Of a DNA stretch of 30,462 bases, positions 6,457 to 29,680 are shown one piece after another. Both the position numbers and the translations under genes were made by a program. Positions within the stretch are counted from its first letter, which is position 1; the number at the start of each line of letters is the position of its first letter. Source of the stretch: Actinomycetota bacterium (GTDB lineage: Bacteria > Actinomycetota > Geothermincolia > Fen-727 > Anoxymicrobiaceae). A model generated the notes under the pieces. That model searched no databases. It saw only the letters and a list, made by a program, of their open reading frames with translations, and was not told the DNA's origin. The stretch is from positions 1 through 30,462 of the forward strand of contig JAHIPE010000234.1 in the NCBI GenBank assembly GCA_018894655.1. The letters run 5' to 3'.

Positions 6457-7311
6457 TCAAATACCTCCGACCTGACAGCCTGGACCGAGCATATCCGCCC
6501 GGCTTTCTGTCAGTTGCACGACTCTCTGCGCATGCGTGTAGACGTTCATCCTCTTTCCGCGCGCGAATCCGACAACCGTTATCCCGAGCTTGCCTGCTGC
6601 GTCAACCGCAAGCGAAGTGGGTGCAGAGCGTGAGACGATGACCGGTGCATGCAACCGCGCGACCTTGAAGACTATTTCCGATGAAATCCTGCCCGTTGTG
6701 AGAACAATCTTGTCTGCCGTTGGAATTGCCCTCATGAAGCATCTCCCGGCGATCCGGTCAAGCGCGTTGTGTCTTCCTATGTCCTCCACGATCAGTAGAA
6801 TGCTTTCCTGATTACACAACGCGCAGGAGTGAGTACCACCGCTTTCAAGAAACGCCAGGCCACTTTTCTGAAACTCCTTCATGAGCCTGGTGAGGTGATG
6901 TGAATAGATCTCGAGCCGTGAATCCACGGGATGGATACCCGTTGCGTCGGTTCCGCGATAGTAAGGAACTGCATTTGAGCACCCCGAGCCGACCAGCCGC
7001 GCGCCGTGGTCGCCTTCGAACAGCACGTATTTCTCGGGAACGCTGACCCTCAGAGAACCGCTTCTTGGATTGAACTTCAGGGAGTACGATTCCGACTCCG
7101 GGGCTATGATGCCTTCGGAAAGCAGGAATCCGAGCGCCAGCTCTTCGGGTTCTCCAGGGCTGGAGAGTATGGTTGCCACCTCCGTTCCGTTGAGCACCAC
7201 GGTAAGCGGTGTCTCTGCCGCTACGAGATCGTCCAGGCACTGGCCCGAACCTGATTCGATGCGTACAACGGGAAGCGTAACCAGTTTTCTTTGCCAGATC
7301 TCAGACTCCAA
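6457..7311 (-). CDS. fdhD: Formate dehydrogenase accessory sulfurtransferase
   Basis: ETPLTV, GFLLSEGI, GSGC, GGTHSCAL, EDIGRHNALD, TTGRISSEIV and GFARGKRMNVYT motifs. Confidence 0.95.
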   Translation of the reverse strand: MESEIWQRKLVTLPVVRIESGSGQCLDDLVAAETPLTVVLNGTEVATILSSPGEPEELALGFLLSEGIIAPESESYSLKFNPRSGSLRVSVPEKYVLFEGDHGARLVGSGCSNAVPYYRGTDATGIHPVDSRLEIYSHHLTRLMKEFQKSGLAFLESGGTHSCALCNQESILLIVEDIGRHNALDRIAGRCFMRAIPTADKIVLTTGRISSEIVFKVARLHAPVIVSRSAPTSLAVDAAGKLGITVVGFARGKRMNVYTHAQRVVQLTESRADMLGPGCQVGGI

Positions 7312-7434
7312 TGGCGGATTCCTTTCGCTCTGGGCAAAGCCCCACGCACTTTATGAGATATAATGCAACTATTTTAACGAAGTTTTACGATACTTGGCTC
7401 AGAGAGGCGACACTTGCCGCAGCCTCTCCACGTG

Positions 7435-7875
7435 TCAATCGCCATGCCGGCCGATCCCCTGTATCTCCTCCCAGCGATTCTGCAGATCCTCGAGCGTCTT
7501 CTTCTCCAGAACGTCTCGCATTGCCAATGTCATCTCGCCCCAGAGCTCTCTGGTGATGCAGTCCTCGACACGGTCACAAACAGAGGGTTCCCTCAAGCAC
7601 TCGATGGGCGCGAGACTACCCTCGAGCGCCTCAAAGATCTCGTCAAGGCGTATCTCAGGGGCCGGGCGGGCCAAGCGGTAGCCGCCACTCGCTCCACGCT
7701 CTGCCTCGACGAGGTTCCTGTTCTTCAAGAGCTTCATCATGTGCTCGAGGTACCTCTTAGAGATCTCCTGCCGCCGGGCGATGTCCTTCAGGAGCACCAG
7801 CCCTGCTTCGCTGCCATTGACGGCGAGGTCCAGCATGGCCCGCATCCCGTACCGTGCCCTGGTTGATATCTTCAT
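7435..7875 (-). CDS. Rrf2-family transcriptional regulator, IscR-like with three C-terminal Cys
   Basis: MKISTRARYGMRAMLDLA, ISKRYLE and RGASGGYRL motifs, plus C-X6-C-X5-C (ECLREPSVCDRVEDC), typical of Fe-S-binding Rrf2 proteins. Confidence 0.93.
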   Translation of the reverse strand: MKISTRARYGMRAMLDLAVNGSEAGLVLLKDIARRQEISKRYLEHMMKLLKNRNLVEAERGASGGYRLARPAPEIRLDEIFEALEGSLAPIECLREPSVCDRVEDCITRELWGEMTLAMRDVLEKKTLEDLQNRWEEIQGIGRHGD

Positions 7876-7906
7876 CTTGTCCTCCCTGGAAAGCGGCGCT
7901 GATTAC

Positions 7907-8941
7907 TCATAGACCGACATAGCGGGAGTACAACGACCTCGCGATCTGCTGGTCGGTGGTACCTTTAATAATCGCTCTCCCCGTCGGGAATACAGTCATC
8001 TCATAGCCGTCAATGCCGAAGACGAGGAGGTACCCGTTGTCCATCACCCGTCCCACTTTCGAAAGGTCCCTTGCAAGGCTTTCCAGGTCGATCTCGGCCG
8101 AGGCAGCCGGCGTAATCTGTACGGCGTTCCGCCCGCAGAGGGAGCTCGTCCACGAAGTGCTCTTTCGGTTCAGGAACGAGTAGTCCCCTTGAGCGCAGCA
8201 TGGGCAACCGGGTACGCGGGCAACCGCGAACTGCTGGAATTCGTTCTCCCATATGTCCACGAAAGTCATCTTGGCGTCAGCTATGTGATTTCCAGTCAGG
8301 AGTCTTATAGCGTGTGTGCTCTGGATGTCCGCGATTATCCCGGTCACCGTGTTCAACACGCCAAGAACGTCGCAGCCCTGAAGGGGCTCACCCGGCGGGA
8401 CCACCAAGAAACAGCGGAAGCAGGCGGTCTCTCCCGGGATGATGGGCATCTCCTGGCCGCAGGAGCCAACGGCCGCGCCGTGAACCCACGGAGTACCGGT
8501 CTTGACACAGGCGTCGTTTAAAAGAAAGCGTGTCTCGAGGTTGTCCGTTGCGTCCATCGCGAGGTCGCATCCGAGCAACAGTTCTTCCATGTTTGCCGGA
8601 GTCACGTCCCTAACCACGCTCTCGATCACGATATCGGAGTTGACCGACTTCAACACCTCCTCGGCAGCAACCGCTTTGGGGAACCTCATTATTGCATGTT
8701 CTTCGTTGAACAACGCCTGTCTCTGCAGGTTGTCAAGCTCAACGAAGTCCCTGTCGACTATTCTCAGGTGACCGACCCCGGCCCTCGCGAGCCTGTCAGC
8801 CACGACCGTCCCGAGGGCTCCACACCCCACGATGAGGACGCGAGCCTTCCCGAGCATTGCTTGGCCTTCACTGCCGATCGGCTCGAAGAGCTCCTGCCTT
8901 GAATAGCGGCTGGTCTCTAGCGTTTTTCCTGGTTCATGCAA
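7907..8941 (-). CDS. ThiF/MoeB-family E1-like adenylyltransferase
   Basis: VGCGALG, DRDFVELDNLQRQ, DATDN, CFRC and CPCC Zn motifs, active-site GCDVLG and C-terminal CGRNAVQI. ATG overlaps the mnmA stop. Confidence 0.92.
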   Translation of the reverse strand: MHEPGKTLETSRYSRQELFEPIGSEGQAMLGKARVLIVGCGALGTVVADRLARAGVGHLRIVDRDFVELDNLQRQALFNEEHAIMRFPKAVAAEEVLKSVNSDIVIESVVRDVTPANMEELLLGCDLAMDATDNLETRFLLNDACVKTGTPWVHGAAVGSCGQEMPIIPGETACFRCFLVVPPGEPLQGCDVLGVLNTVTGIIADIQSTHAIRLLTGNHIADAKMTFVDIWENEFQQFAVARVPGCPCCAQGDYSFLNRKSTSWTSSLCGRNAVQITPAASAEIDLESLARDLSKVGRVMDNGYLLVFGIDGYEMTVFPTGRAIIKGTTDQQIARSLYSRYVGL

Positions 8942-13607: not shown

Positions 13608-14564
13608 CTACAGTGAGACGTAGTCGGGCGAGTCGGTCGGCGCGTCGAAGAGCCAGGTGGAGAGGTACCTTTCGCCCGTGTCCGGGAGCACGACCACGAT
13701 CAACTTCCTCTCGTTCTCACGTCTTTTCGCCACCTGGATTGCTGCCCATGCCGCCGCGCCGGAGGATATACCCGCGAGGATGCCCTCGCATTTGGCCAGC
13801 GCCCTGGTCATCTCCCCCGCTGCCTCGTCCTCCACTTTGATTATCTCGTCGATCAGTTCGGTGTTCAGAACGTCCGGTACGAACCCGGCGCCGATGCCCT
13901 GTATCTTGTGAGGGCCGGGCTTTCCTCCCGAAAGGACCGGGGACTTCTCCGGTTCTACGGCAATCACCTTGAAATCCGGCTTCTTTTCCTTTATGACCTC
14001 CGCCACACCGGTCAGGGTTCCCCCTGTTCCCACGCCGCTCACGAGGATGTCGACTTTACCGTCCGTGTCTTCCCAGATCTCACAAGCGGTCGTCTCCCGG
14101 TGAATCCTCGGGTTGGCGGGGTTCTTGAACTGTTGCGGGATGAAACTATTCGGCATCTTCTTCGCCAGGTCCTCAGCTTCCGCCACGGCCCCCGGCATGC
14201 CCTTGGCGCCGGGGGTCAACACCAGCTTCGCGCCGAAAATAGTCATGAGTTTCCTGCGCTCAACGCTCATCGTATCCGGCATGGTCAAGATCAATTTGTA
14301 GCCGCGGGCCGCGCAAACAAAAGCCAACGAAATCCCCGTATTGCCACTGGTGGGCTCGATAATCGTCGTCTCGGGTGTAATGAGGCCACTTTTTTCGGCA
14401 TCATCAATCATGCTGACGCCGATTCGGTCTTTAACGCTCGCCAGTGGGTTGAAGGATTCGAGTTTCGCGTAGATCTCGGCTTCCGCTCCGCCGGTAACCC
14501 GTCGGAGACGCACCAGCGGCGTGTTACCGATCGTCCGCGTTATATCCTCATACAATCTGCTCAT
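13608..14564 (-). CDS. cysK: Cysteine synthase A (O-acetylserine sulfhydrylase)
   Basis: [53 protein letters not shown] and [10 protein letters not shown] motifs; GAGGAGG RBS. Confidence 0.97.
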
Positions 14565-14647
14565 TTTGTCCTCCTCGGTGGAACTTATCGCCGCACGAAC
14601 ACTAGCAGGCCGGGCTTTGAGTCAGTTGGAGCTTCAATGCCCAACCG

Positions 14648-14767
14648 TCACAGAAGTGGGGCACAACACATGATGCATGGGCAACACCCGTCCACGCAAT
14701 CTTGACCAGGAACGTTGGGTGGTGCTGCTTGTGTTTCCGTCTTTTGGCCTGCGTTCCTCATGGTCAT
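14648..14767 (-). CDS. Cys-rich leader peptide (MTMRNAGQKTETQAAPPNVPGQDCVDGCCPCIMCCAPLL), putative cys attenuator
   Basis: Hand-translated and absent from the ORF track (<60 aa). Six Cys in 12 codons (14663-14698), GGGAGA RBS at 14785-14780, in-frame starts TTG 14770/ATG 14767/ATG 14761. Stops 83 nt before the cysK ATG. Confidence 0.8.
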   Translation of the reverse strand: MTMRNAGQKTETQAAPPNVPGQDCVDGCCPCIMCCAPLL

Positions 14768-14834
14768 CAATCCGGGTCGTCTCCCGGCGGCCGTGCGCCG
14801 CCTTGAAAAAACCCTGAGACTCAAGTATCATTAT

Positions 14835-14859
14835 ATTGTCTACTATTATGGTAGGTTAT
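14835..14859. promoter_or_regulatory. Putative Rrf2/IscR-type operator (cys promoter / larE divergent region)
   Basis: ATTGTCTACTATTATGGTAGGTTAT; imperfect palindrome CTAC-N7-GTAG; matches the recalled IscR type-1 consensus ATASYYGACTRWWWYAGTCRRSTAT at 20/25 by hand; similar box at 29511-29535. Confidence 0.65.
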
Positions 14860-14868
14860 CTAATAATT

Positions 14869-14898
14869 ATCATACAGGCTGGCCCCCGCTCGTGTCAA
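14869..14898 (-). promoter_or_regulatory. Sigma70-type promoter for the Cys leader-cysK operon
   Basis: TTGACA (14898-14893), 18-nt spacer, TATGAT (14874-14869). A second TATAAT lies at 14835-14830. Confidence 0.6.
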
Positions 14899-14961
14899 GA
14901 TAGACTATCAATGGATGAGCTCGATCAAAGGCGGGAGAACCTTTTTCCCGGGAGTACGGCA

Positions 14962-15786
14962 ATGGAGGCGAATCTCAAGGCGAAGCACCTCGCACTAAAG
15001 CGCAACCTGGCGGATACGGGGAGCGCGGTCCTCGCTTTCTCCGGGGGTGTAGACAGCACCCTTGTGCTCGCGGTCGGCAGGGAAGCTCTCGGTGACAGGA
15101 TTATCGCGGCAACCGCCCGTTCGCCGCTGTACCCTCGATCGGTTGTCGAAAGAGCCGCCACTCTGGCTCAGCGGCTTTGCGTTGAACATGTAGTCCTGGA
15201 CTCCAACGAGCTTGAGGACGCCCGGTTTACGTCCAACCCTCCGGAGCGCTGCTACCTTTGCAAGCGGGAGCTCTACGGCAGGCTCGACCGACTTGCCAAG
15301 AAAAGGGGGGTTGCGGCGGTAATCGACGGTACCCAACTGGATGACACGAGTGATTACCGTCCGGGAATGAGGGCGGCGGCAGAATTTGGTGTGCGGAGCC
15401 CGTTGCTCGAGGTCGGATTCACAAAGGATGAAATAAGGGCATTTTCAAAAGAGCTCGGCCTTGATACCTGGGATATCCCCGCCGGCCCGTGCCTGGCCTC
15501 GCGAGTGCCCTACTCGGAAGAAATCACTCCCCGGAAACTCGCCGCTATTGAGCAGGGCGAGCAGTTCCTGGGAGAACTGGGTTTTCGCGAAGTCAGGGTC
15601 CGCTTTACGAAAGACAGTACGGCGCGGATCGAAATCACCGCCGACTGCATATCGAAACTTGCTGACAAGGCGGTTCGCGAGAAGGTCGTGGGCAAGATGA
15701 AGGAACTGGGCTTCCTGTACGTCACCCTGGACCTCGAAGGATACAGAACCGGTTCAATGAATATGATCCTAGCCGATCAGGATTGA
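14962..15786 (+). CDS. larE: LarE-family ATP-dependent sulfur insertase (PP-loop)
   Basis: AFSGGVDS, RCYLCK, DD..DYRPGM, PCLASRVPY and VTLDLEGYRTGSMN motifs. ATG 14962 has a GGGAG RBS; ATG 14911 is possible. The track start at 14836 runs through the promoter and is unlikely. Confidence 0.9.
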   Translation: MEANLKAKHLALKRNLADTGSAVLAFSGGVDSTLVLAVGREALGDRIIAATARSPLYPRSVVERAATLAQRLCVEHVVLDSNELEDARFTSNPPERCYLCKRELYGRLDRLAKKRGVAAVIDGTQLDDTSDYRPGMRAAAEFGVRSPLLEVGFTKDEIRAFSKELGLDTWDIPAGPCLASRVPYSEEITPRKLAAIEQGEQFLGELGFREVRVRFTKDSTARIEITADCISKLADKAVREKVVGKMKELGFLYVTLDLEGYRTGSMNMILADQD

Positions 15787-15788
15787 AT

Positions 15789-15920
15789 GTCGTAGCCGAG
15801 CGCGCCATGTACTTCGTCCACAGCGACGGCGACTGCAGCCGCGACGGAGGACACGCGACCGCGGGGATCAACGGCCCCTCGATGACCCGGTACTTCGCCG
15901 GGGGCTACACCGGTTTCTAG
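15789..15920 (+). pseudogene. Short relic of a repeat-domain surface protein (DUF5719-like)
   Basis: Translates [43 protein letters not shown]-stop. It resembles the AERxMYF...GGH...W(Y)FAEGYTG repeats I recall from secreted proteins of deep-branching anaerobic Actinomycetota. Confidence 0.55.
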
Positions 15921-18900
15921 TTTGTCTCGAGCTTCAATTCCCGGCCTGCGTAATGGAACTTGTCCAGGAAAGAGTTCGTTGCCCCTAGAACCCCCGACAC
16001 GATAACATCGTTCCCGAGGAAGCCGTTTATCAGGTCGCCCTCCTTGCTGAACTTCTTCTCCTCACGCATCATCTCGGCCTCGTCGGCTCCGATGTATATC
16101 GTTTCGTACCTTTTCCCGGCGATTCTTACTGCACCGAAATCACCGGCTTCGAACTTGTCTTTGAGCTTGTCCGGGATGTTGGTCCCGTCGATCTCGTAGA
16201 AGAACTTGGGAACTCCATCCGCAAGAACGACCTTGACACTTGCAAAGGTGTTCAACCGGTCGAATGTCCGCCGATTCACGATGTGGTAGATGTCGATATC
16301 CGTGCCCGTGGGCTTCAGGACGCCCGCGACCTTCATCGACGGCAATCCGAAGAAGTCCTTTATTTCATCCCCGGGCTTGCCGAAGAGTCCTTCTTTCTTC
16401 ATCATCTCGGCTTCCTCGGCTCCCAGCACCATCTCGTTGTCCGCGAGCGCGGCGGCGCCCTCTTTCGACTTGAGGATTTTGCCGTCTACCTTGTCCACCC
16501 CGAGAAAAAGCTTGGGGTTTCCGTCCACGAAATTTACCTTTGTCTCGCCGCTTGCCAAATAGCCGCCCACCGCCTTTACGGTTTGGGCGGACGCGACCTT
16601 GCCCATTCCGGCCTCTTCAGTCATGCCTGAACTTATCCGGGCAAACCAGACAAACAGGAGGGTGAAGACTATCACCATTACAACCGGCGCGATCTTCGAG
16701 ATGTAGTTCTTCCTGCCCGGCTTGAACCTGCGAAGGAGGAGCGAGTTCGACACGACCGAGACTGAGCTCAATACCATCGCGATCCCGGCCAGCTCAGGCC
16801 GCAACACCACCCCGAGTCCCGCGAAGACCCTCGCGGCGATGGGTATCCCCATCACGTTGTAGAACAGGGCGAAGAACATGTTCTGCCGGACCTTACCGAA
16901 GGTATCCTTCGAGAGCTCCTTTGCCGTCACCACGTCCCTGAGGTCGTTCTTGATCATCACGATGCCACCTGTTTCCATGGCCACATCCGTACCCGAACCC
17001 ATGGCGATACCGAGGTCGGCCTGTGCCAGCGCGGGCGCGTCATTAATACCGTCGCCAACCATGGCGACCTTCTTGCCGCTTTCCTGGAGTTTCTTGACCT
17101 CGCTGGCCTTGTCTTCCGGTAGCACCTCGGCCAGGACATTGGTAATCCCGAGTTCCTTGGCAATGGCGTTAGCGGTCCTCCGGTTGTCGCCGGTAATCAT
17201 GTAGATATCAAGTCCCGTATCGCGTAACCGCGACACTGCTTCGCGGGACGTCTCTTTTGCAGTATCCGCAACGGCCACGGCACCCAGAACTTTCTCATCC
17301 GAGGAAAGGATCATGACGGTCTTCCCCTGTTCCTCGAGTCTCGAGACCTTCCGGTTGATGCCGTCCAGCTCAAGACCGACGACATTGGTAAGCAGTTTCC
17401 TGTTGCCGAAGTAATACCGACGTCCCCGGACCTCGCCCTGGACTCCATGACCGGGAATCGCACTGAAACCTGTGACCTCGTCGAGCCCGATTGATTCGTC
17501 GTTCGCATGGTTGTAGACGGCCTCGGCGAGCGGGTGCTCCGACGACTTCTCGAGGGACGCGGATATCTGTAGAACGTCATCCTCGTCAAAACCATTGAAG
17601 CCCAGAACATCCGTGACTTCCGGTTCGCCGTTGGTCAGGGTACCCGTCTTGTCGAAGACCATGGTCGTTATCTTCTCGGCTGACTCGAGGGGCTCGCCCC
17701 CCTTGATCAAGATTCCGTATTCGGCTCCTTTGCCGGTGCCCACCATTATGGCGGTAGGCGTTGCCAGGCCGAGCGCGCAGGGGCACGCAATGACAATGAC
17801 GCTGGTGAAAGCCATGAGAGAGAAAGTCAGCGACGCGTTCAGGAAGAGAAACCAGATCGCGAATGTCAGAGAAGCGATGCCGATGACCGCCGGCACGAAC
17901 CGGGCGGAAATCCGGTCCGCGAACCCCTGTATAGGCGCTTTGGAGCCCTGGGCTTCCTCTATCAGGCGGATGATTTGTGCCAGCATCGTCTCGGACCCGA
18001 CCCTGGTTGCCTCGAACTCGAAGCTCCCGGTCTTGTTAATGGTGACGCCTATGACTTCGTCACCCACGTTCTTCTCGACCGGCAGGCTCTCTCCGCTCAC
18101 CATTGATTCATCTACCGCGGACGAACCCTTCATGACAATGCCGTCGACCGGTATCTTCTCCCCCGGACGGACCAGTATTATGTCTCCGTGGACAACTTCG
18201 TCGATAGGGATATCCTCGGTTACTCCGTTCCTTATTACCCTGGCCGTCTTCGCCTGTAGGCCCATCAGTTTCTTGATTGCCTCCGAGGTCTTGCCTTTTG
18301 CGCGGGCCTCGAGCCACTTGCCAAGGAGGACGAAGGTAATAAGGAGGGCGGCGGTCTCGAAATACATGTTTGGGATCTTTTGCCCCGCCAAGCCGATGAG
18401 GGACCTGTTTGAAACAGCGAACGATATGTAGCCTATGAGGCTGTAGAAATAAGCGGTCGAGGTCCCGATGGCGATCAAGCTGTCCATATTGAAGGTTTTC
18501 ATCCGAAGGCTCGACCACGCGCCTTTGTAGAAGCCCGCGCCCGCGATGAACTGCACGGGAGTGGCAAGGATCAGGGATATGATCCCGAAATATGGGGGCA
18601 GGGACCCGGCCCCCGGAAGCCACTTGAAGAAGTCCAGGAGCATGAAATAGAGCATGGGGATGCTCAGGATCAAGCTGAACAGGAACCTGTTCCAGTACCC
18701 CCTGATCTCGCTCTCCCGCTTCCTGCTCTCGTAGTCGCTGTCCCTGTCGTCGACGACCTCCGCCTTGTAGCCCGCTTTCTTGACGGCCTCGATCAATCCG
18801 TCCAGCCCTACCTCTCGCTCGTCAAATGTGACGTATGCCTTTTCAGAGGCGAAATTGACGCCCGCCTGCTTCACGCCCGCGAGTTTCTCAAGCGAACGTT

Positions 18901-19525
18901 CGATTATGGCCGCGCAGGACGCGCAATGCATCCCGGACAACGACAACCCGACCCTGGCTTCCGCCCTTGGCCCGGGTTGCTCCTCGGTTTGGCCCTCGAG
19001 CGATTGATCATCCCTGCCGACTTCGAGGTGAACCCTGTCCCGGGCAACACCGCCGAGAAGATTCCATGCGGTGACGGACTTGATTACGTGGTCGATAAAC
19101 CCCCGCGCATTTTCGTCTTTCTCGGGGACACTGATCTCGGCGGTCTTTTCTTCCTTGATCTTGCCCTTGAAAGCTGGTTTGCCCGAGTCGTCTTCGACAA
19201 CGGTACCCTCGAAATCGACTTTGGAATTGATCTTTATCTCCAGCGGGCTTCCGGAGGGCCCCGTCTCTATTTGGACGGCCATGGGAGTGCTTTCTACTTG
19301 AACCTCTTCACCGATAATCCGGGTCTCATAGCCCTCCCGGGCAAGGCGTTCCAGTAGCTGTTCCCTCGAGACCAGATCCGGGTCTGCCGTCACCTTGCCC
19401 GTTCCGCTGTCATAATCGACTTCCGCACTGCTGACCCCGGGGATATCGAGAAGGACCCCCTCGATGAGCCGCGCGCAGGAGGTGCAGTGCATGCCTTCTA
19501 TCCTGAGCTTCAATTCCTCTCTCAT
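15917..19525 (-). CDS. copA: Copper-translocating P1B-type ATPase with two HMA domains and a long C-terminal extension
   Basis: Two GMHCx[34 protein letters not shown] and MVLSS motifs; AGGGAGG RBS; 1202 aa. Confidence 0.96.
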
Positions 19526-19929: not shown

Positions 19930-21849
19930 CTAACCACAGCATGGACATCCACCCGGGTCGGGGGACGTTGTTTCGTCGTAGTCGAACTTGGACCTGTTGG
20001 GGTCTTTTTCGTCAACGACGTCGATTACTCCCTCGACCATTCCCATCCAGCAACTGAAACGGAACCTGCCCACCTTCCACGGGGTGAATTCCTTCACGCT
20101 GGTCTTGCCGGGAGTCAAAGAGATTTGCCCTTCGAAAAGATCCTTAGAGATAATCGCGTTCGTGCAGCCACTCGTACCCGTATCCTTGATTTCCCACTTG
20201 ACGGGTACTCCCATCCTCACTTTGAGTTGGTTTGGGCTGTAGCCGGACCGGGATGCATTCATCTCGAGTATCTGCTTGCCGTCCACGATCGGCGGCAGGC
20301 CGGTTTCGGTCTCGTTGGAAATATCTGGCGCGGGCGCGGGGGTGGTGTCCCCCGCTGAATCGGGTTGGCCTCGAGTCTCTTGGCGATCTTCTTGCGGCGT
20401 CTGGGCGGGGGTGGTGTCCTCCGCTGAATCGAGGCTCTCGCTCGCTTTGCCGGGGACGTCTTTTTCATCCAGGAACTCGAAGGTGCCACCGACCATTCCC
20501 ATCCAGCAACTGAACTTGAACCTGCCGGGCTTCTTCGGGGTGAATTCCTTCACGCTGGTCTTTCCGGGAGTCAAAGAGATTTGCCCTTCGAAAAGATCCT
20601 TAGAGATAATCGCGTTCGTGCAGCCACTCGTACCCGTATCATTGATTTCCCATCTTACGGGGATCCCAACCCAAGCCCGCAGGTAGTTCGGCTTATATTC
20701 GGAGGCGGACGCCTCCATCCCCACAACCTGTTTCCCATCGACTATCGGTGGCATCTGGGCGTTCGCGGCGTCGCCGGACGCCCCCGTCGGCCTGATGAGG
20801 TCGGTGAGGCTGGGCAGGTTCAGGACTACGAGTTGGTTGTTGACGTTGTAGACGGCGAAGAACAAGACGACGATGCCCGCGACCTTCAAGAAAGTGGTCA
20901 CGAGGCGGGGCCTCTCCAGGAACTTGACGCTCGTAAACCCTATCAATAGCAGCATGGGCAGGGTCCCGAGCGCAAATGCGAGCATTATCATGCTCCCCTG
21001 GAGCGGCCTGCCCGAGAGCAAGGCGAAGCCCTGGGCGGTGATGGTGAACCCGCAGGGAAGGAAGAAGGTCATGGCACCCATCATGAAGGGCATGTAGCGG
21101 CCCTTGAAGTGGGTCTCATCGGCCACGTACCTCGTAACTGCCCTCGGCATCGAGAACTGGAACCGCTGGAGGAACCTGACTCCGAGCATCTGAAGGCCGA
21201 GCACGACCATGACCATGGAAATCACGATCACCATGCCGGCAGAAAATGTAGGCGAAATCTTGAATGTGCCGCCGGCGAGGGCCAGGACTGCGCCAAGGGC
21301 CGCGTAGGAAACCAGCCGCCCGCTGTTGAACAGCAAGTGCGGTTCAAGCTTCTTCTTCAGGGCATCTTCCGAGGAGTGCAGTTCCGACCATTGCTTGGAC
21401 ATCGACAGGATTATTCCACCGACCAGGGCGGCGCAACTCGAGAAGCCAGCCGCAATCCCGAGTAAGAAAAACACGGGCAGCGACGATTTCGAATTCACCG
21501 TTACCAGCCGCGAGAGGCCTGCTTTTTCCAACAATATGAAGAGGCCGATCGCAAGAAGAACAGCGAGCGCGATCTTCGCGTAACTTGCCCTACCGGCAGT
21601 GACCGGCCCCGATTTCGTCGGGCTGAGGGAGAAGGAGTAACCCTCCTCCTCAAAGAGCCTGTTCAGTTGCCCGACCGACGGCGCCTGCCCCTCGTGTTCG
21701 ACCAGGACACCGGCCTTGGGGGTTGAAGCCTCGACAGAGTGCACGTTCTCGAGTTCTATCAATTTCTTCTCGATAATGATCTCGCAGGAAGCGCAGTGCA
21801 TCCCCTTGATGAAATACTCGCATTCCTTCGTGCCGGGCTTTTTCCCCAC
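19930..21849 (-). CDS. HMA + DsbD_2/sulfite-exporter-like membrane domain + tandem cupredoxin-like domains
   Basis: N-terminal GMHCASC; hydrophobic core with SSCAALVGG and FFLPCGF; two GCTNAI...GRF.FSCWMGM domains; C-terminal GGCPCCG. Confidence 0.88.
   Translation of the reverse strand: MGKKPGTKECEYFIKGMHCASCEIIIEKKLIELENVHSVEASTPKAGVLVEHEGQAPSVGQLNRLFEEEGYSFSLSPTKSGPVTAGRASYAKIALAVLLAIGLFILLEKAGLSRLVTVNSKSSLPVFFLLGIAAGFSSCAALVGGIILSMSKQWSELHSSEDALKKKLEPHLLFNSGRLVSYAALGAVLALAGGTFKISPTFSAGMVIVISMVMVVLGLQMLGVRFLQRFQFSMPRAVTRYVADETHFKGRYMPFMMGAMTFFLPCGFTITAQGFALLSGRPLQGSMIMLAFALGTLPMLLLIGFTSVKFLERPRLVTTFLKVAGIVVLFFAVYNVNNQLVVLNLPSLTDLIRPTGASGDAANAQMPPIVDGKQVVGMEASASEYKPNYLRAWVGIPVRWEINDTGTSGCTNAIISKDLFEGQISLTPGKTSVKEFTPKKPGRFKFSCWMGMVGGTFEFLDEKDVPGKASESLDSAEDTTPAQTPQEDRQETRGQPDSAGDTTPAPAPDISNETETGLPPIVDGKQILEMNASRSGYSPNQLKVRMGVPVKWEIKDTGTSGCTNAIISKDLFEGQISLTPGKTSVKEFTPWKVGRFRFSCWMGMVEGVIDVVDEKDPNRSKFDYDETTSPDPGGCPCCG
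20080..20652. repeat. Intragenic direct repeat (20080-20196 and 20536-20652)
   Basis: Two 117-bp copies 456 bp apart, differing at 2 positions by hand count; they encode the cupredoxin cores. Confidence 0.9.
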
Positions 21850-29276: not shown

Positions 29277-29302
29277 TCAAAATTACGAGGCGTTTTCTCG
29301 AG

Positions 29303-29345
29303 AAATAAAAAACCCGCCAACCGTTTCCCCACCTGGCTGCGGGTT
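29303..29345 (-). terminator. Intrinsic terminator of the met leader (attenuator 3:4 stem)
   Basis: mRNA AACCCGC-AGCC...GGUU-G-GCGGGUU followed by UUUUAUUU, about 50 nt before the metY ATG. Confidence 0.88.
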
Positions 29346-29408
29346 CTTCCTTGATGAATGTCAGAAAGATGATGCCTACATAGGCATGCCCCCCGCGCGC
29401 AGGTGGGA
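29327..29408 (-). promoter_or_regulatory. Antiterminator (2:3) helix of the met leader
   Basis: UCCCACCUGCGCGCGGG (29408-29392) pairs with CCCGCAGCCAGGUGGGG (29343-29327): 9 bp + 5 bp GC-rich helices that sequester the terminator 5' arm. Confidence 0.82.
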
Positions 29409-29483
29409 TCGCATAGCCATGCGACACATCATCATCTGCCTATCGCCGATATAGCTTATCGAGTCATTGCCAGGTCTTATCAT
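29376..29483 (-). CDS. Met-rich leader peptide (MIRPGNDSISYIGDRQMMMCRMAMRSHLRAGGMPM)
   Basis: AGGAGA RBS 7 nt upstream of ATG 29483; 7 internal Met codons plus 1 Cys in the last 19 codons; lies between the promoter and the terminator. Confidence 0.88.
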   Translation of the reverse strand: MIRPGNDSISYIGDRQMMMCRMAMRSHLRAGGMPM

Positions 29484-29510
29484 GCAGACATCTCCTGATG
29501 CGAATACAAT

Positions 29511-29535
29511 AAACCCTACCATTATGATAGAGAAT
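29511..29535. promoter_or_regulatory. Putative Rrf2/IscR-type operator at the met promoter
   Basis: AAACCCTACCATTATGATAGAGAAT; 19/25 identical to the reverse complement of the 14835-14859 box; overlaps the -10 element and predicted start site. Confidence 0.6.
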
Positions 29536-29561
29536 ATACCAGCATCAAACCAGGGTGTCAA
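29533..29561 (-). promoter_or_regulatory. Sigma70-type promoter for the met leader/operon
   Basis: TTGACA (29561-29556)-N17-TATATT (29538-29533). Confidence 0.8.
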
Positions 29562-29680
29562 GGGCAACGGGGATCCAGCCCCAAATCCACAAGGGGATTC
29601 AGGGCTCGCCGGTGCGGGTGCTTGGCCAGCATACTGCTCAATCAATGAGGGGGGGCTGAATATTTACGACTTTTTACTGG

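Follow-up and report, generated by a model that had tools for sequence, protein, structure and literature searches.

The 30,462-nt stretch of DNA analysed here (the window) covers positions 1 to 30,462 of contig JAHIPE010000234.1 (assembly GCA_018894655.1), from an actinobacterium of the class Geothermincolia, family Anoxymicrobiaceae. On its minus strand lies a sulfur operon in the order sORF-cysK-thi4-DUF6775-iscS/nifS-cysE-mnmA-thiF/moeB-rrf2, then fdhD-nadA, which opens with a Cys-rich short open reading frame (sORF) placed between the promoter and cysK. The operon both makes and consumes cysteine, and a larE-like gene (TIGR00268, 310 bits) is divergent to cysK. The features of the locus are collected in Table 1.

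Table 1. Features of the cysK leader and related elements in the window, with the ends of the leader peptides (SD, Shine-Dalgarno sequence; MFE, minimum free energy)
Feature	Position	Strand	Description
Promoter of the cysK operon, sigma-70 type	14898-14869	minus	TTGACA-N18-TATGAT; 11/12 consensus positions; predicted -10 at 14874-14869
Palindrome, putative Rrf2-type operator	14854-14840		CTACC-ATAAT-AGTAG in the minus-strand reading; just 3' of the -10 of either divergent promoter
Divergent promoter of the larE-like gene	14803-14831	plus	TTGAAA-N17-TATCAT; inside the cysK leader
G+C-rich hairpin	14802-14786	minus	GGCGGC-GCACG-GCCGCC; directly 5' of the sORF SD; in MFE and centroid folds
SD-like sequence of the sORF	14785-14781	minus	GGGAG; spacing of 13 nt to the ATG and of 10 nt to an in-frame TTG
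Leader sORF	14767-14648	minus	39 codons and stop; peptide MTMRNAGQKTETQAAPPNVPGQDCVDGCCPCIMCCAPLL; ATG 14767-14765, TGA 14650-14648
Cys cluster	14698-14663	minus	CVDGCCPCIMCC; codons 24-35; 6 Cys in 12 codons (3 TGT, 3 TGC)
Conserved 20-nt core	14688-14669	minus	GGTGTTGCCCATGCATCATG; encodes (G)-C-C-P-C-I-M
Hairpin H2	14646-14608	minus	GGUUGGGCAUUGA ... UCAAAGCCCGGCC; begins 2 nt past the sORF stop; in MFE and centroid folds; no U-tract
SD of cysK	14576-14570	minus	GAGGAGG; spacing of 5 nt to the ATG (14564)
cysK	14564-13608	minus	first gene of the operon; TIGR01139, 476 bits (cut-off 351)
Rrf2 (CymR/IscR-like) regulator gene	7435-7875	minus	within the cysK operon
Copper-type P-type ATPase	15917-19525	minus	1202 aa, long C-terminal extension
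HMA-DsbD_2-cupredoxin protein	19930-21849		639 aa
Leader region with Met-rich sORF, before metY	29300-29565	minus	MIRPGNDSISYIGDRQMMMCRMAMRSHLRAGGMPM, then stop
Peptide end, window			QDCVDGCCPCIMCCAPLL, then stop
Peptide end, X7 variant			CIMCRTPLL, then stop
Peptide end, G008 (L002)			RATFRCRPCIMRCCLPR, then stop; core part FRCRPCIMRCCLPR
Peptide end, G007 (L005)			GSTGRCCPCIMRTRFVQKAGIYVP, then stop; core part GRCCPCIMRTRF
Peptide, L121			GATCRHCPCIMRTRFVQKAGACVPK, further residues, then stop; core part TCRHCPCIMRTRF
Peptide end, G042 (L068)			SICIGRCCLCIMQRL, then stop; core part GRCCLCIMQRL, then stop
Peptide end, L061			GTGRCCPCIMCRPSPTCA, then stop; core part GRCCPCIMCRPSPTCA

An earlier note on this DNA, written from its letters alone, had described a minus-strand frame with six Cys codons in 12, led by a ribosome-binding site (RBS) and lying behind a TTGACA-N18-TATGAT promoter; we found all three in place, the start codon being at 14767 rather than 14766. 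The Cys codons form a CC-P-C-IM-CC series that ends four codons before the sORF stop, with consecutive Cys residues near the C-terminus. The predicted 5' untranslated region (UTR) ahead of the sORF ATG is ~95 nt long, no TANNNT box lies 7–12 nt upstream of that ATG, and a spacer of 83 nt separates the sORF from cysK. Such a frame is rare in this genome. When the 1.88-Mb assembly (61.5% G+C) was scanned in all six frames, only 7 of ~59,650 stop-to-stop segments, the sORF included, reached at least 6 Cys in 12 codons; three of the other six were short off-frame segments within long ORFs and three were long open frames (272–429 codons), leaving the sORF as the only short intergenic case. For comparison, Cys accounts for 1.3% of the residues in the long ORFs of the genome, and TGT for 21% of its Cys codons. 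Rfam covariance models gave two chance snoRNA matches only (E = 3.8 and 7.4).

Cys-rich sORFs also precede cysK in six other Geothermincolia sequences: the genomes G007, G008 and G042 (loci L005, L002 and L068, respectively), two metagenome contigs (L061 and L121) and a strain variant from run X7, ~94% identical to the window. These homologues share a (G)RCCPCIM core, have unalignable N-termini and run to 30–49 codons, and every one of them holds CC or an equivalent Cys cluster. All have SD-like sequences and plausible starts, the best being that of L068 (GAAGGAGGG + 5 nt + ATG); L002 reads CCGGGAG + 11 nt + ATG, homologous to the GGGAG of the window, and a TTG start codon is used in G007 and L121. 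At the nucleotide level the 20-nt core stands exactly or almost exactly before cysK in G007, G008, G042 and L061 and with 2 nt changed in L121, its invariant part being YGCCYATGYATCATG. Since G042 belongs to another family, the recurrence upstream of cysK spans two families of the class.

We compared the best cysK loci of 40 relatives, in a class of 51 species genomes, and found a Cys-rich frame sharing the nucleotide core of the window only in G008 and G007; searching the whole class for a 14-mer brought in G042. The exact 20-mer pattern matched only already known genomes among ~186,000 species genomes and, in a single scan of a metagenome collection, one new contig (L061), while L121, a relative of G007, was found through the genomic surroundings of a CysK homologue. 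When as many as 2 mismatches were allowed, the 20-mer had no match near cysK in 400 sampled Actinomycetota genomes, and a peptide profile run against six-frame translations of the 51 class genomes returned the known members only, a match in G025 being rejected because it is antisense to a long open frame and not close to cysK. Other candidates were discarded as well: 14-mer matches with one mismatch elsewhere in the class occurred at the control frequency, and a recurrent GCCCGTGCATCATG is antisense within a conserved coding gene.

Which reading frame is under selection? In five of five leaders the Cys frame is open for 38–82 codons upstream of the core, whereas the other frames fall to 11 and 1. 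Frame-specific Cys enrichment also extends outside the conserved core: in the same leaders, non-homologous Cys codons within 8 codons of the core make up 8 of 71 positions (11%), against 2.5% in the other two frames (P = 4e-4). The pair L005 and L121, 85% identical and alignable free of gaps, points the same way. Between them, synonymous and non-synonymous codon changes stand at 8:8 in the Cys frame and at 6:12 and 2:14 in the other two; the segment RTRFVQKAG has five synonymous changes and no non-synonymous one; and Cys codons have turned over, one core Cys being lost (TGT to CAT, C to H) and two gained (GGC to TGC and TAC to TGC). These comparisons point to the Cys reading frame of the sORF as the one under selection; the open frame, its Cys enrichment and its conservation in that frame are shown by the sequences themselves.

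Two explanations that deny the sORF any regulatory role in cis can be weighed on this evidence. The first, a chance open frame in G+C-rich intergenic DNA, could appeal to the seven Cys-dense segments of the genome and to Cys-rich frames before cysK in G013 and G016, which we rejected as sORF homologues, both being off-frame readings of the upstream gene. We consider it very improbable, as the genome has no second short intergenic case, the frame recurs before cysK in two families, and frame openness, flank enrichment and Cys turnover agree. The second holds that the product is a small functional Cys-rich peptide, for example one that binds metal or sulfur, merely co-expressed with the operon. 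The conserved core of 5–8 residues, which includes the non-Cys residues P, I and M and often G-R ahead of them, would fit such a peptide, as would the synonymous excess in RTRFVQKAG and the copper and heavy-metal genes nearby. Yet conservation is limited to ~8 residues while N-terminus and tail vary freely, the sORF always lies between promoter and cysK and never elsewhere, a search of 5.8 billion predicted proteins for the sORF peptide found none, and the closest relatives lack it while retaining the operon; a functional peptide is therefore decidedly unlikely.

Three promoter-like sites were found, against 0.5 expected from shuffled sequence, and transcription of the operon is predicted to start near 14862; the TTGACA-N17/18-TAnnnT layout upstream of cysK is kept in relatives too. 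Thi4 and DUF6775 had raised the suspicion that the DNA is archaeal, which we rejected on account of these conserved sigma-70 promoters and of the assignment of the relatives to Ca. Geothermincolia / Anoxymicrobiaceae (Actinomycetota). The palindrome next to the -10 elements was found in every cysK upstream region examined, whether sORF-bearing or not. In the form CTAYC-N5-GRTAG it has three copies, two in the window (14840-14854 and 29516-29530) and one on contig C42 of G000 (1770-1784), each located just after the -10 of a sigma-70-like promoter (TTGACA-N17/18); the C42 copy precedes an ORF of 444 aa. The features looked for in an Rrf2-controlled promoter, namely a palindrome at the promoter and transcription start, its recurrence at sulfur operons and an Rrf2 gene in the genome, were thus all found. 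Because an Rrf2 gene lies in the operon and the palindrome recurs beside TTGACA promoters, the palindrome is most likely the operator of that Rrf2 protein, and the three copies probably form the regulon of this CymR/IscR-like regulator.

The divergent promoter belongs to the same arrangement. An opposite-strand TTGAAA/TTGCAA-N17-TAnnnT is readable in L002, L005, L006 and L104, and a conserved GGTTTTTCAAGG in the family-f1 leaders, which might be taken for a conserved RNA element of the leader, is accounted for better by the divergent larE promoter, whose -35 it would be. The predicted cysK and larE-like transcripts diverge and share ~25 nt (window 14803-14862); as the shared part is the operator, one site could gate both cysK and the larE-like gene.

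Our favoured reading, which we hold with moderate confidence, is that the sORF is translated and serves the cysK sulfur operon as its leader peptide, and that its clustered Cys codons gauge charged tRNA-Cys. Besides the rarity, recurrence and frame evidence given above, this reading has in its favour an operon that makes and consumes cysteine, a Met-rich leader before metY under the same operator, and precedents from the same phylum, both taken up below. As a first tier, the sigma-70 promoter with its start near 14862 would be gated by the Rrf2-type repressor site. A ribosome would then load at GGGAG/ATG, ~95 nt into the leader, and as a second tier decode CC-P-C-I-M-CC. When Cys-tRNA runs short, it would dwell on the conserved CPCIM core and alter events in the 83-nt spacer before cysK, H2 included, the outcome being higher expression of cysK and the genes downstream. 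We infer the translation of the sORF, the stalling on Cys shortage and the direction of the effect. Of the Cys-sensing leader that the earlier note proposed, the conserved Cys-rich leader ORF before cysK is supported and the proposed output is not.

Several results weigh against this leader-peptide reading, and the first set concerns the core itself, which is conserved at synonymous sites, a fact that peptide or codon sensing alone does not explain. Where the residue is present, the codons are invariant (TGT for the first Cys, 5/5; CCA for Pro, 4/4; ATC for Ile, 5/5; AGG for Arg, 4/4; also TGC); CCA has 9% usage in the genome. In the adjacent cysK, by comparison, an identical codon is found in only 16% of the residues that are invariant across five genomes (0/8 Pro, 1/5 Ile, 0/4 Arg). 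The core was no more complementary to tRNA-Cys than its shuffles, its duplex with the cysK initiation region was weaker than that of shuffled motifs in four of five leaders, and a hairpin with a GGUGU loop forms at the core in only 3–4 of 5. We also considered whether transcription from an internal promoter might begin at the core ATG and make it a leaderless start, and rejected this, no consistent -10 and -35 being visible by eye.

The codon invariance invites another explanation, in which a box of 16–20 nt is itself the functional unit, a site in RNA or DNA (the target of a protein or of a small RNA, an RNA polymerase pause, or the AGGUG-N6-AUG start of an MHH.. ORF) and the long Cys frame is a by-product. 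AGGTG-TTGCCC-ATG is indeed a plausible RBS and start, opening a frame of 14–19 codons in four of five leaders, and there is the precedent of Ms5788A, where silent changes of Cys codons abolish attenuation (10.1101/834739). However, the change of GGTGTT to GGCATT in L121 destroys AGGTG together with the first Cys, yet two Cys codons are gained elsewhere in that leader; Cys enrichment reaches the non-conserved flanks in one frame only, and the Cys frame alone is open in all members. Neither the cysK initiation region, nor tRNA-Cys, nor a shared hairpin emerged as a conserved partner of the box, Rfam returned nothing, and the MHH peptides are unrelated past three residues, one of them running 59 codons into cysK. 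We regard this explanation as improbable.

What would a ribosome on the leader change? A second set of results weighing against the leader-peptide reading comes from this output step. In keeping with the earlier note, which saw no U-tailed terminator, a scan of the minus strand from 14300 to 15200 revealed no terminator-like site. The predicted fold does contain the UGUUC..CGG/CCG..GGACA helix and the further small helices that the note named, as well as a GGUUGGGC hairpin, but its energy is not unusual (z = 0.16 over 14700-14555, z = -1.2 over the whole leader). H2, followed by UGCUAGUGUUCG, is a robust feature of this fold; it is not conserved in homologues, and the X7 variant disrupts two of the inner pairs with no compensating change. 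UGCCCA and GCCCCAC inside the sORF are able to pair with its 5' arm, but these alternative partners of GUUGGG, which the note had pointed out, are not conserved either, and H2 is no terminator. The G+C-rich hairpin ahead of the sORF SD is likewise not kept in homologues.

To model a ribosome we slid 30-nt footprints along the leader or set them on each Cys codon, in whole leaders and in local windows. The SD of cysK is ~50% unpaired in the window and hardly shifts with any of these masks, and neither Cys-centred nor sliding masks unmasked the RBS consistently across homologues; the idea of a helix that covers the cysK RBS and is opened by stalling finds no support in the window and no consistent support in the homologues. 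The structures near the sORF stop differ from leader to leader and show no compensatory changes. L005 and L068 have an RBS-sequestering hairpin whose 5' arm lies at or after the sORF stop, and that of L005 loses two pairs in L121; in L002 a hairpin holds the sORF stop codon in its loop. L061, unlike the window, does carry a terminator-type structure, a long hairpin, rich in G+C, which extends over the final codons of the sORF and has CUUUCUUUUUCUC behind it; an anti-SD CCCUUCU lies just after the core. The Rho-dependent output suggested by the earlier note fared no better: the genome has a rho gene, but a rut-like C>G skew after the core is absent from the family-f1 leaders. No computed result favours one output among post-stop hairpin remodelling, a block to Rho loading and RBS exposure. 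Given the rho gene, the control could be tna-like, with a stalled ribosome keeping Rho off the transcript.

In L005 and L068, a ribosome placed at the stop raises the predicted accessibility of the RBS from 0.26 to 0.41 and from 0.33 to 0.51, respectively, whereas one placed at the Cys codons does not, which implies the opposite logic. Translation up to the sORF stop would then open the leader or shield it from Rho, so that a mixed operon of cysteine makers and consumers (iscS, thi4, mnmA, thiF) is expressed in proportion to Cys-tRNA. The L121 sORF reaches to 8 nt before the cysK SD and the Cys-free sORF of L104-type relatives ends inside it, both in line with such a control, and the Rrf2 (CymR/IscR-like) tier would already supply derepression on Cys shortage. 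We nevertheless consider a control of this sign unlikely. The operon contains cysK and cysE, the RBS of the window itself is predicted not to be closed, and the hairpins lack conservation and covariation. To our knowledge, every characterised amino-acid leader peptide acts by induction on shortage.

The remaining points against a Cys-sensing leader peptide concern its distribution and its setting. The earlier note had looked to relatives for Cys clusters with divergent N-termini; they exist in G007, G008, G042, the two metagenome contigs and the strain variant, but the note's own refuting condition, orthologous regions that lack Cys enrichment, is in part borne out by the closest relatives. 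No Cys sORF was found in the genus-mate G001, in the nearest CysK homologues at 86–88% identity (the L104 group, L111 and L125) or at 80–83% CysK identity (L113, L114, L119 and L122), all of which keep the promoter, the operator and cysK-thi4; the sORF is therefore dispensable. In addition, the 13 nt between its SD-like sequence and the ATG make a long spacing, and no RNA run contains the locus, which occurs in DNA runs only, from groundwater.

Some of the relatives have other short frames or structures in place of the Cys leader. L104 (identical in L105–L107, L109 and L110; CysK 88%) carries a Cys-free sORF of 21 codons, MRSNSSALTWKTEMATEFKER, whose TGA lies inside the cysK SD; this group retains the promoter, the operator and the divergent promoter, and the arrangement suggests translational coupling rather than Cys sensing. 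A second, unrelated sORF lies ~190–230 nt upstream of cysK paralogues or orthologues in sister genera, at L016 (G012:C61), L025 (G015:C7) and L026 (G010:C23). Its start codon is a GTG behind a GGAGGTT RBS, and it reads M(R/K)L(C/F/I)WYW(V/M)RYH(H/R)(F/L)V(R/A) to the stop; because its changes include synonymous ones (CGG/AGG, GTT/GTC), it appears to be conserved as a peptide and looks like an arrest-peptide-type leader. In L119/L120, from a relative of G008 without the sORF, the last 80 nt before cysK keep a hairpin GCCCCGC-UGAUC-GCGGGGC that in G008 straddles the sORF stop, with G at the position of the mismatched A of G008; there, the gene caller extends an HMA/DsbD_2 gene across this stretch.

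How does the window leader compare with known systems? For Mycobacterium and Propionibacterium, comparative genomics predicted sORFs in the leaders of cys operons, with Cys-codon runs close to the stop; a terminator hairpin was not conserved, and Rho was proposed to provide the output (Seliverstov et al. 2005, PMC1262725). In M. smegmatis, leaderless polycysteine sORFs attenuate cysteine operons by unmasking the RBS, and in one of them, Ms5788A, silent Cys-codon changes break attenuation, the tract pairing with the SD region (Canestrari et al. 2020, 10.1101/834739). The members of this 'Cys ribulon' are Ms5788A/Rv0815A, Rv2334A, Rv0485A and Rv2391A, of which Rv2334A, named as a further polycysteine sORF, precedes cysK1-cysE (10.1101/834739; PMC13096801), and ribosome stalling at the Cys codons of such sORFs has been seen in M. 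tuberculosis (PMC13096801).

The likeness to the Cys ribulon is considerable: the host is again a member of the Actinomycetota, the sORF is the first cistron of a cysteine and sulfur operon (cysK...cysE, cf. Rv2334A-cysK1-cysE), Cys codons follow one another directly towards the C-terminus, an intrinsic terminator is lacking, the spacer to the next gene is in the range of 50–110 nt, and the Cys codons are under constraint as nucleotides, although in the window sORF the pairing partner is missing. The differences listed by the earlier note (a frame that is RBS-led, longer and with interspersed Cys codons) are correct as far as the sequence goes. The window sORF, known from sequence alone, is not leaderless and has a predicted 5' UTR of ~95 nt with an SD; its Cys codons are scattered through a conserved C-C-P-C-I-M core that also has invariant residues other than Cys; no pairing is predicted between its Cys tract and the downstream RBS; and it is joined to an Rrf2 operator at the promoter, with one locus found in the genome and no multi-locus regulon. 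We therefore class the window sORF as probably working like the mycobacterial polycysteine family and not as a member of it, as it has neither a predicted leaderless start nor a predicted pairing of Cys tract and RBS. It shares the design of the leaders predicted by Seliverstov et al. (PMC1262725), down to a rho gene in the genome, and differs from them in its class, Geothermincolia, in its conserved core and in having no conserved pyrimidine-rich or C>G rut-like tract.

The same design, a short ORF with clustered regulatory codons between promoter and biosynthetic gene, is that of trpL, hisL, leuL and thrL, and also that of the uORFC-8-2 Cys-codon motif before cysS in Rhodobacterales (PMC8632094). 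Unlike these classical attenuators, the cysK leader of the window shows neither a terminator nor an evident terminator/antiterminator pair; the hairpin of L061 over the last sORF codons, followed by its CUUUCUUUUUCUC run, comes closer to them, as does the apparent terminator of the Met-rich leader described below. As far as the summary in PMC13236596 of Ito and Chiba 2013 goes, the short invariant core (CPCIM) behind a variable N-terminus and near the end of the leader ORF also recalls the arrest peptides TnaC, SpeFL and ErmCL, from which the window leader differs in its Cys enrichment and turnover outside the core, which indicate stalling limited by decoding rather than a specific nascent-chain sensor. 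By analogy, a tna-type block to Rho would be a possible output.

In a more far-reaching alternative, the core xGC-CCA-UGY-AUC-AUG (C-P-C-I-M) would cause arrest as nascent peptide and as mRNA together, in response to a signal other than the charging of tRNA-Cys, and would have an output requiring neither a terminator nor an RBS mask, the WYWxRYH sORF being a parallel sensor. The ligand could be free cysteine, sulfide, O-acetylserine or a metal, and the output could be a block to Rho or the recruitment of a factor. Such an element is suggested by the synonymous sites of the core, since these are kept across families whose cysK is saturated at such sites; on the whole we find it quite unlikely.

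Elsewhere in the window and on the L061 contig, further observations touch on sulfur metabolism. On L061, a COG1900-type homocysteine biosynthesis gene (PF01837, E = 7e-148) occupies positions 6781-7992, between cysK and thi4, so that, by gene content, its Cys leader is at the head of an operon also making homocysteine. In the window, the P-type ATPase and the HMA-DsbD_2-cupredoxin protein of Table 1 lie between two sulfur operons. The second of these begins with a Met-rich leader sORF, preceded by a TTGACA-N17-TATATT promoter and the palindrome copy at 29516-29530, and continues with metY-metX-metW-radical SAM-CBS-CGL. After the sORF, an AACCCGC...GCGGGTTTTTTATTT stem with a U-run is seen by eye, beyond the loop limit of the terminator scan, and forms an apparent intrinsic terminator. 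The Met-rich sORF shares an ATG-TGY-CGN (M-C-R) step with the Cys leaders of L061 and the X7 variant. Because a Met-rich sORF and an apparent terminator stand together before metY, the organism appears to use leader-peptide attenuation for this sister pathway and to be able to make ordinary terminators.

The state of the sister lineages, some with no sORF and others with one that is free of Cys or with an unrelated aromatic one, suggests that the leader module is easily gained and lost. Only two features are likely to puzzle specialists, the invariance of the CPCIM box in its nucleotides and the absence of a recognisable output structure. If the Cys-sensing leader peptide is real, ribosome-read cysteine sensing before cysK would extend beyond the leaderless mRNAs of mycobacteria, in an RBS-led form, to a deep-branching, uncultured class of actinobacteria. 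A Cys leader atop an Rrf2 repressor and beside a Met leader attenuator would then give these organisms a compact two-tier control of sulfur amino acids.

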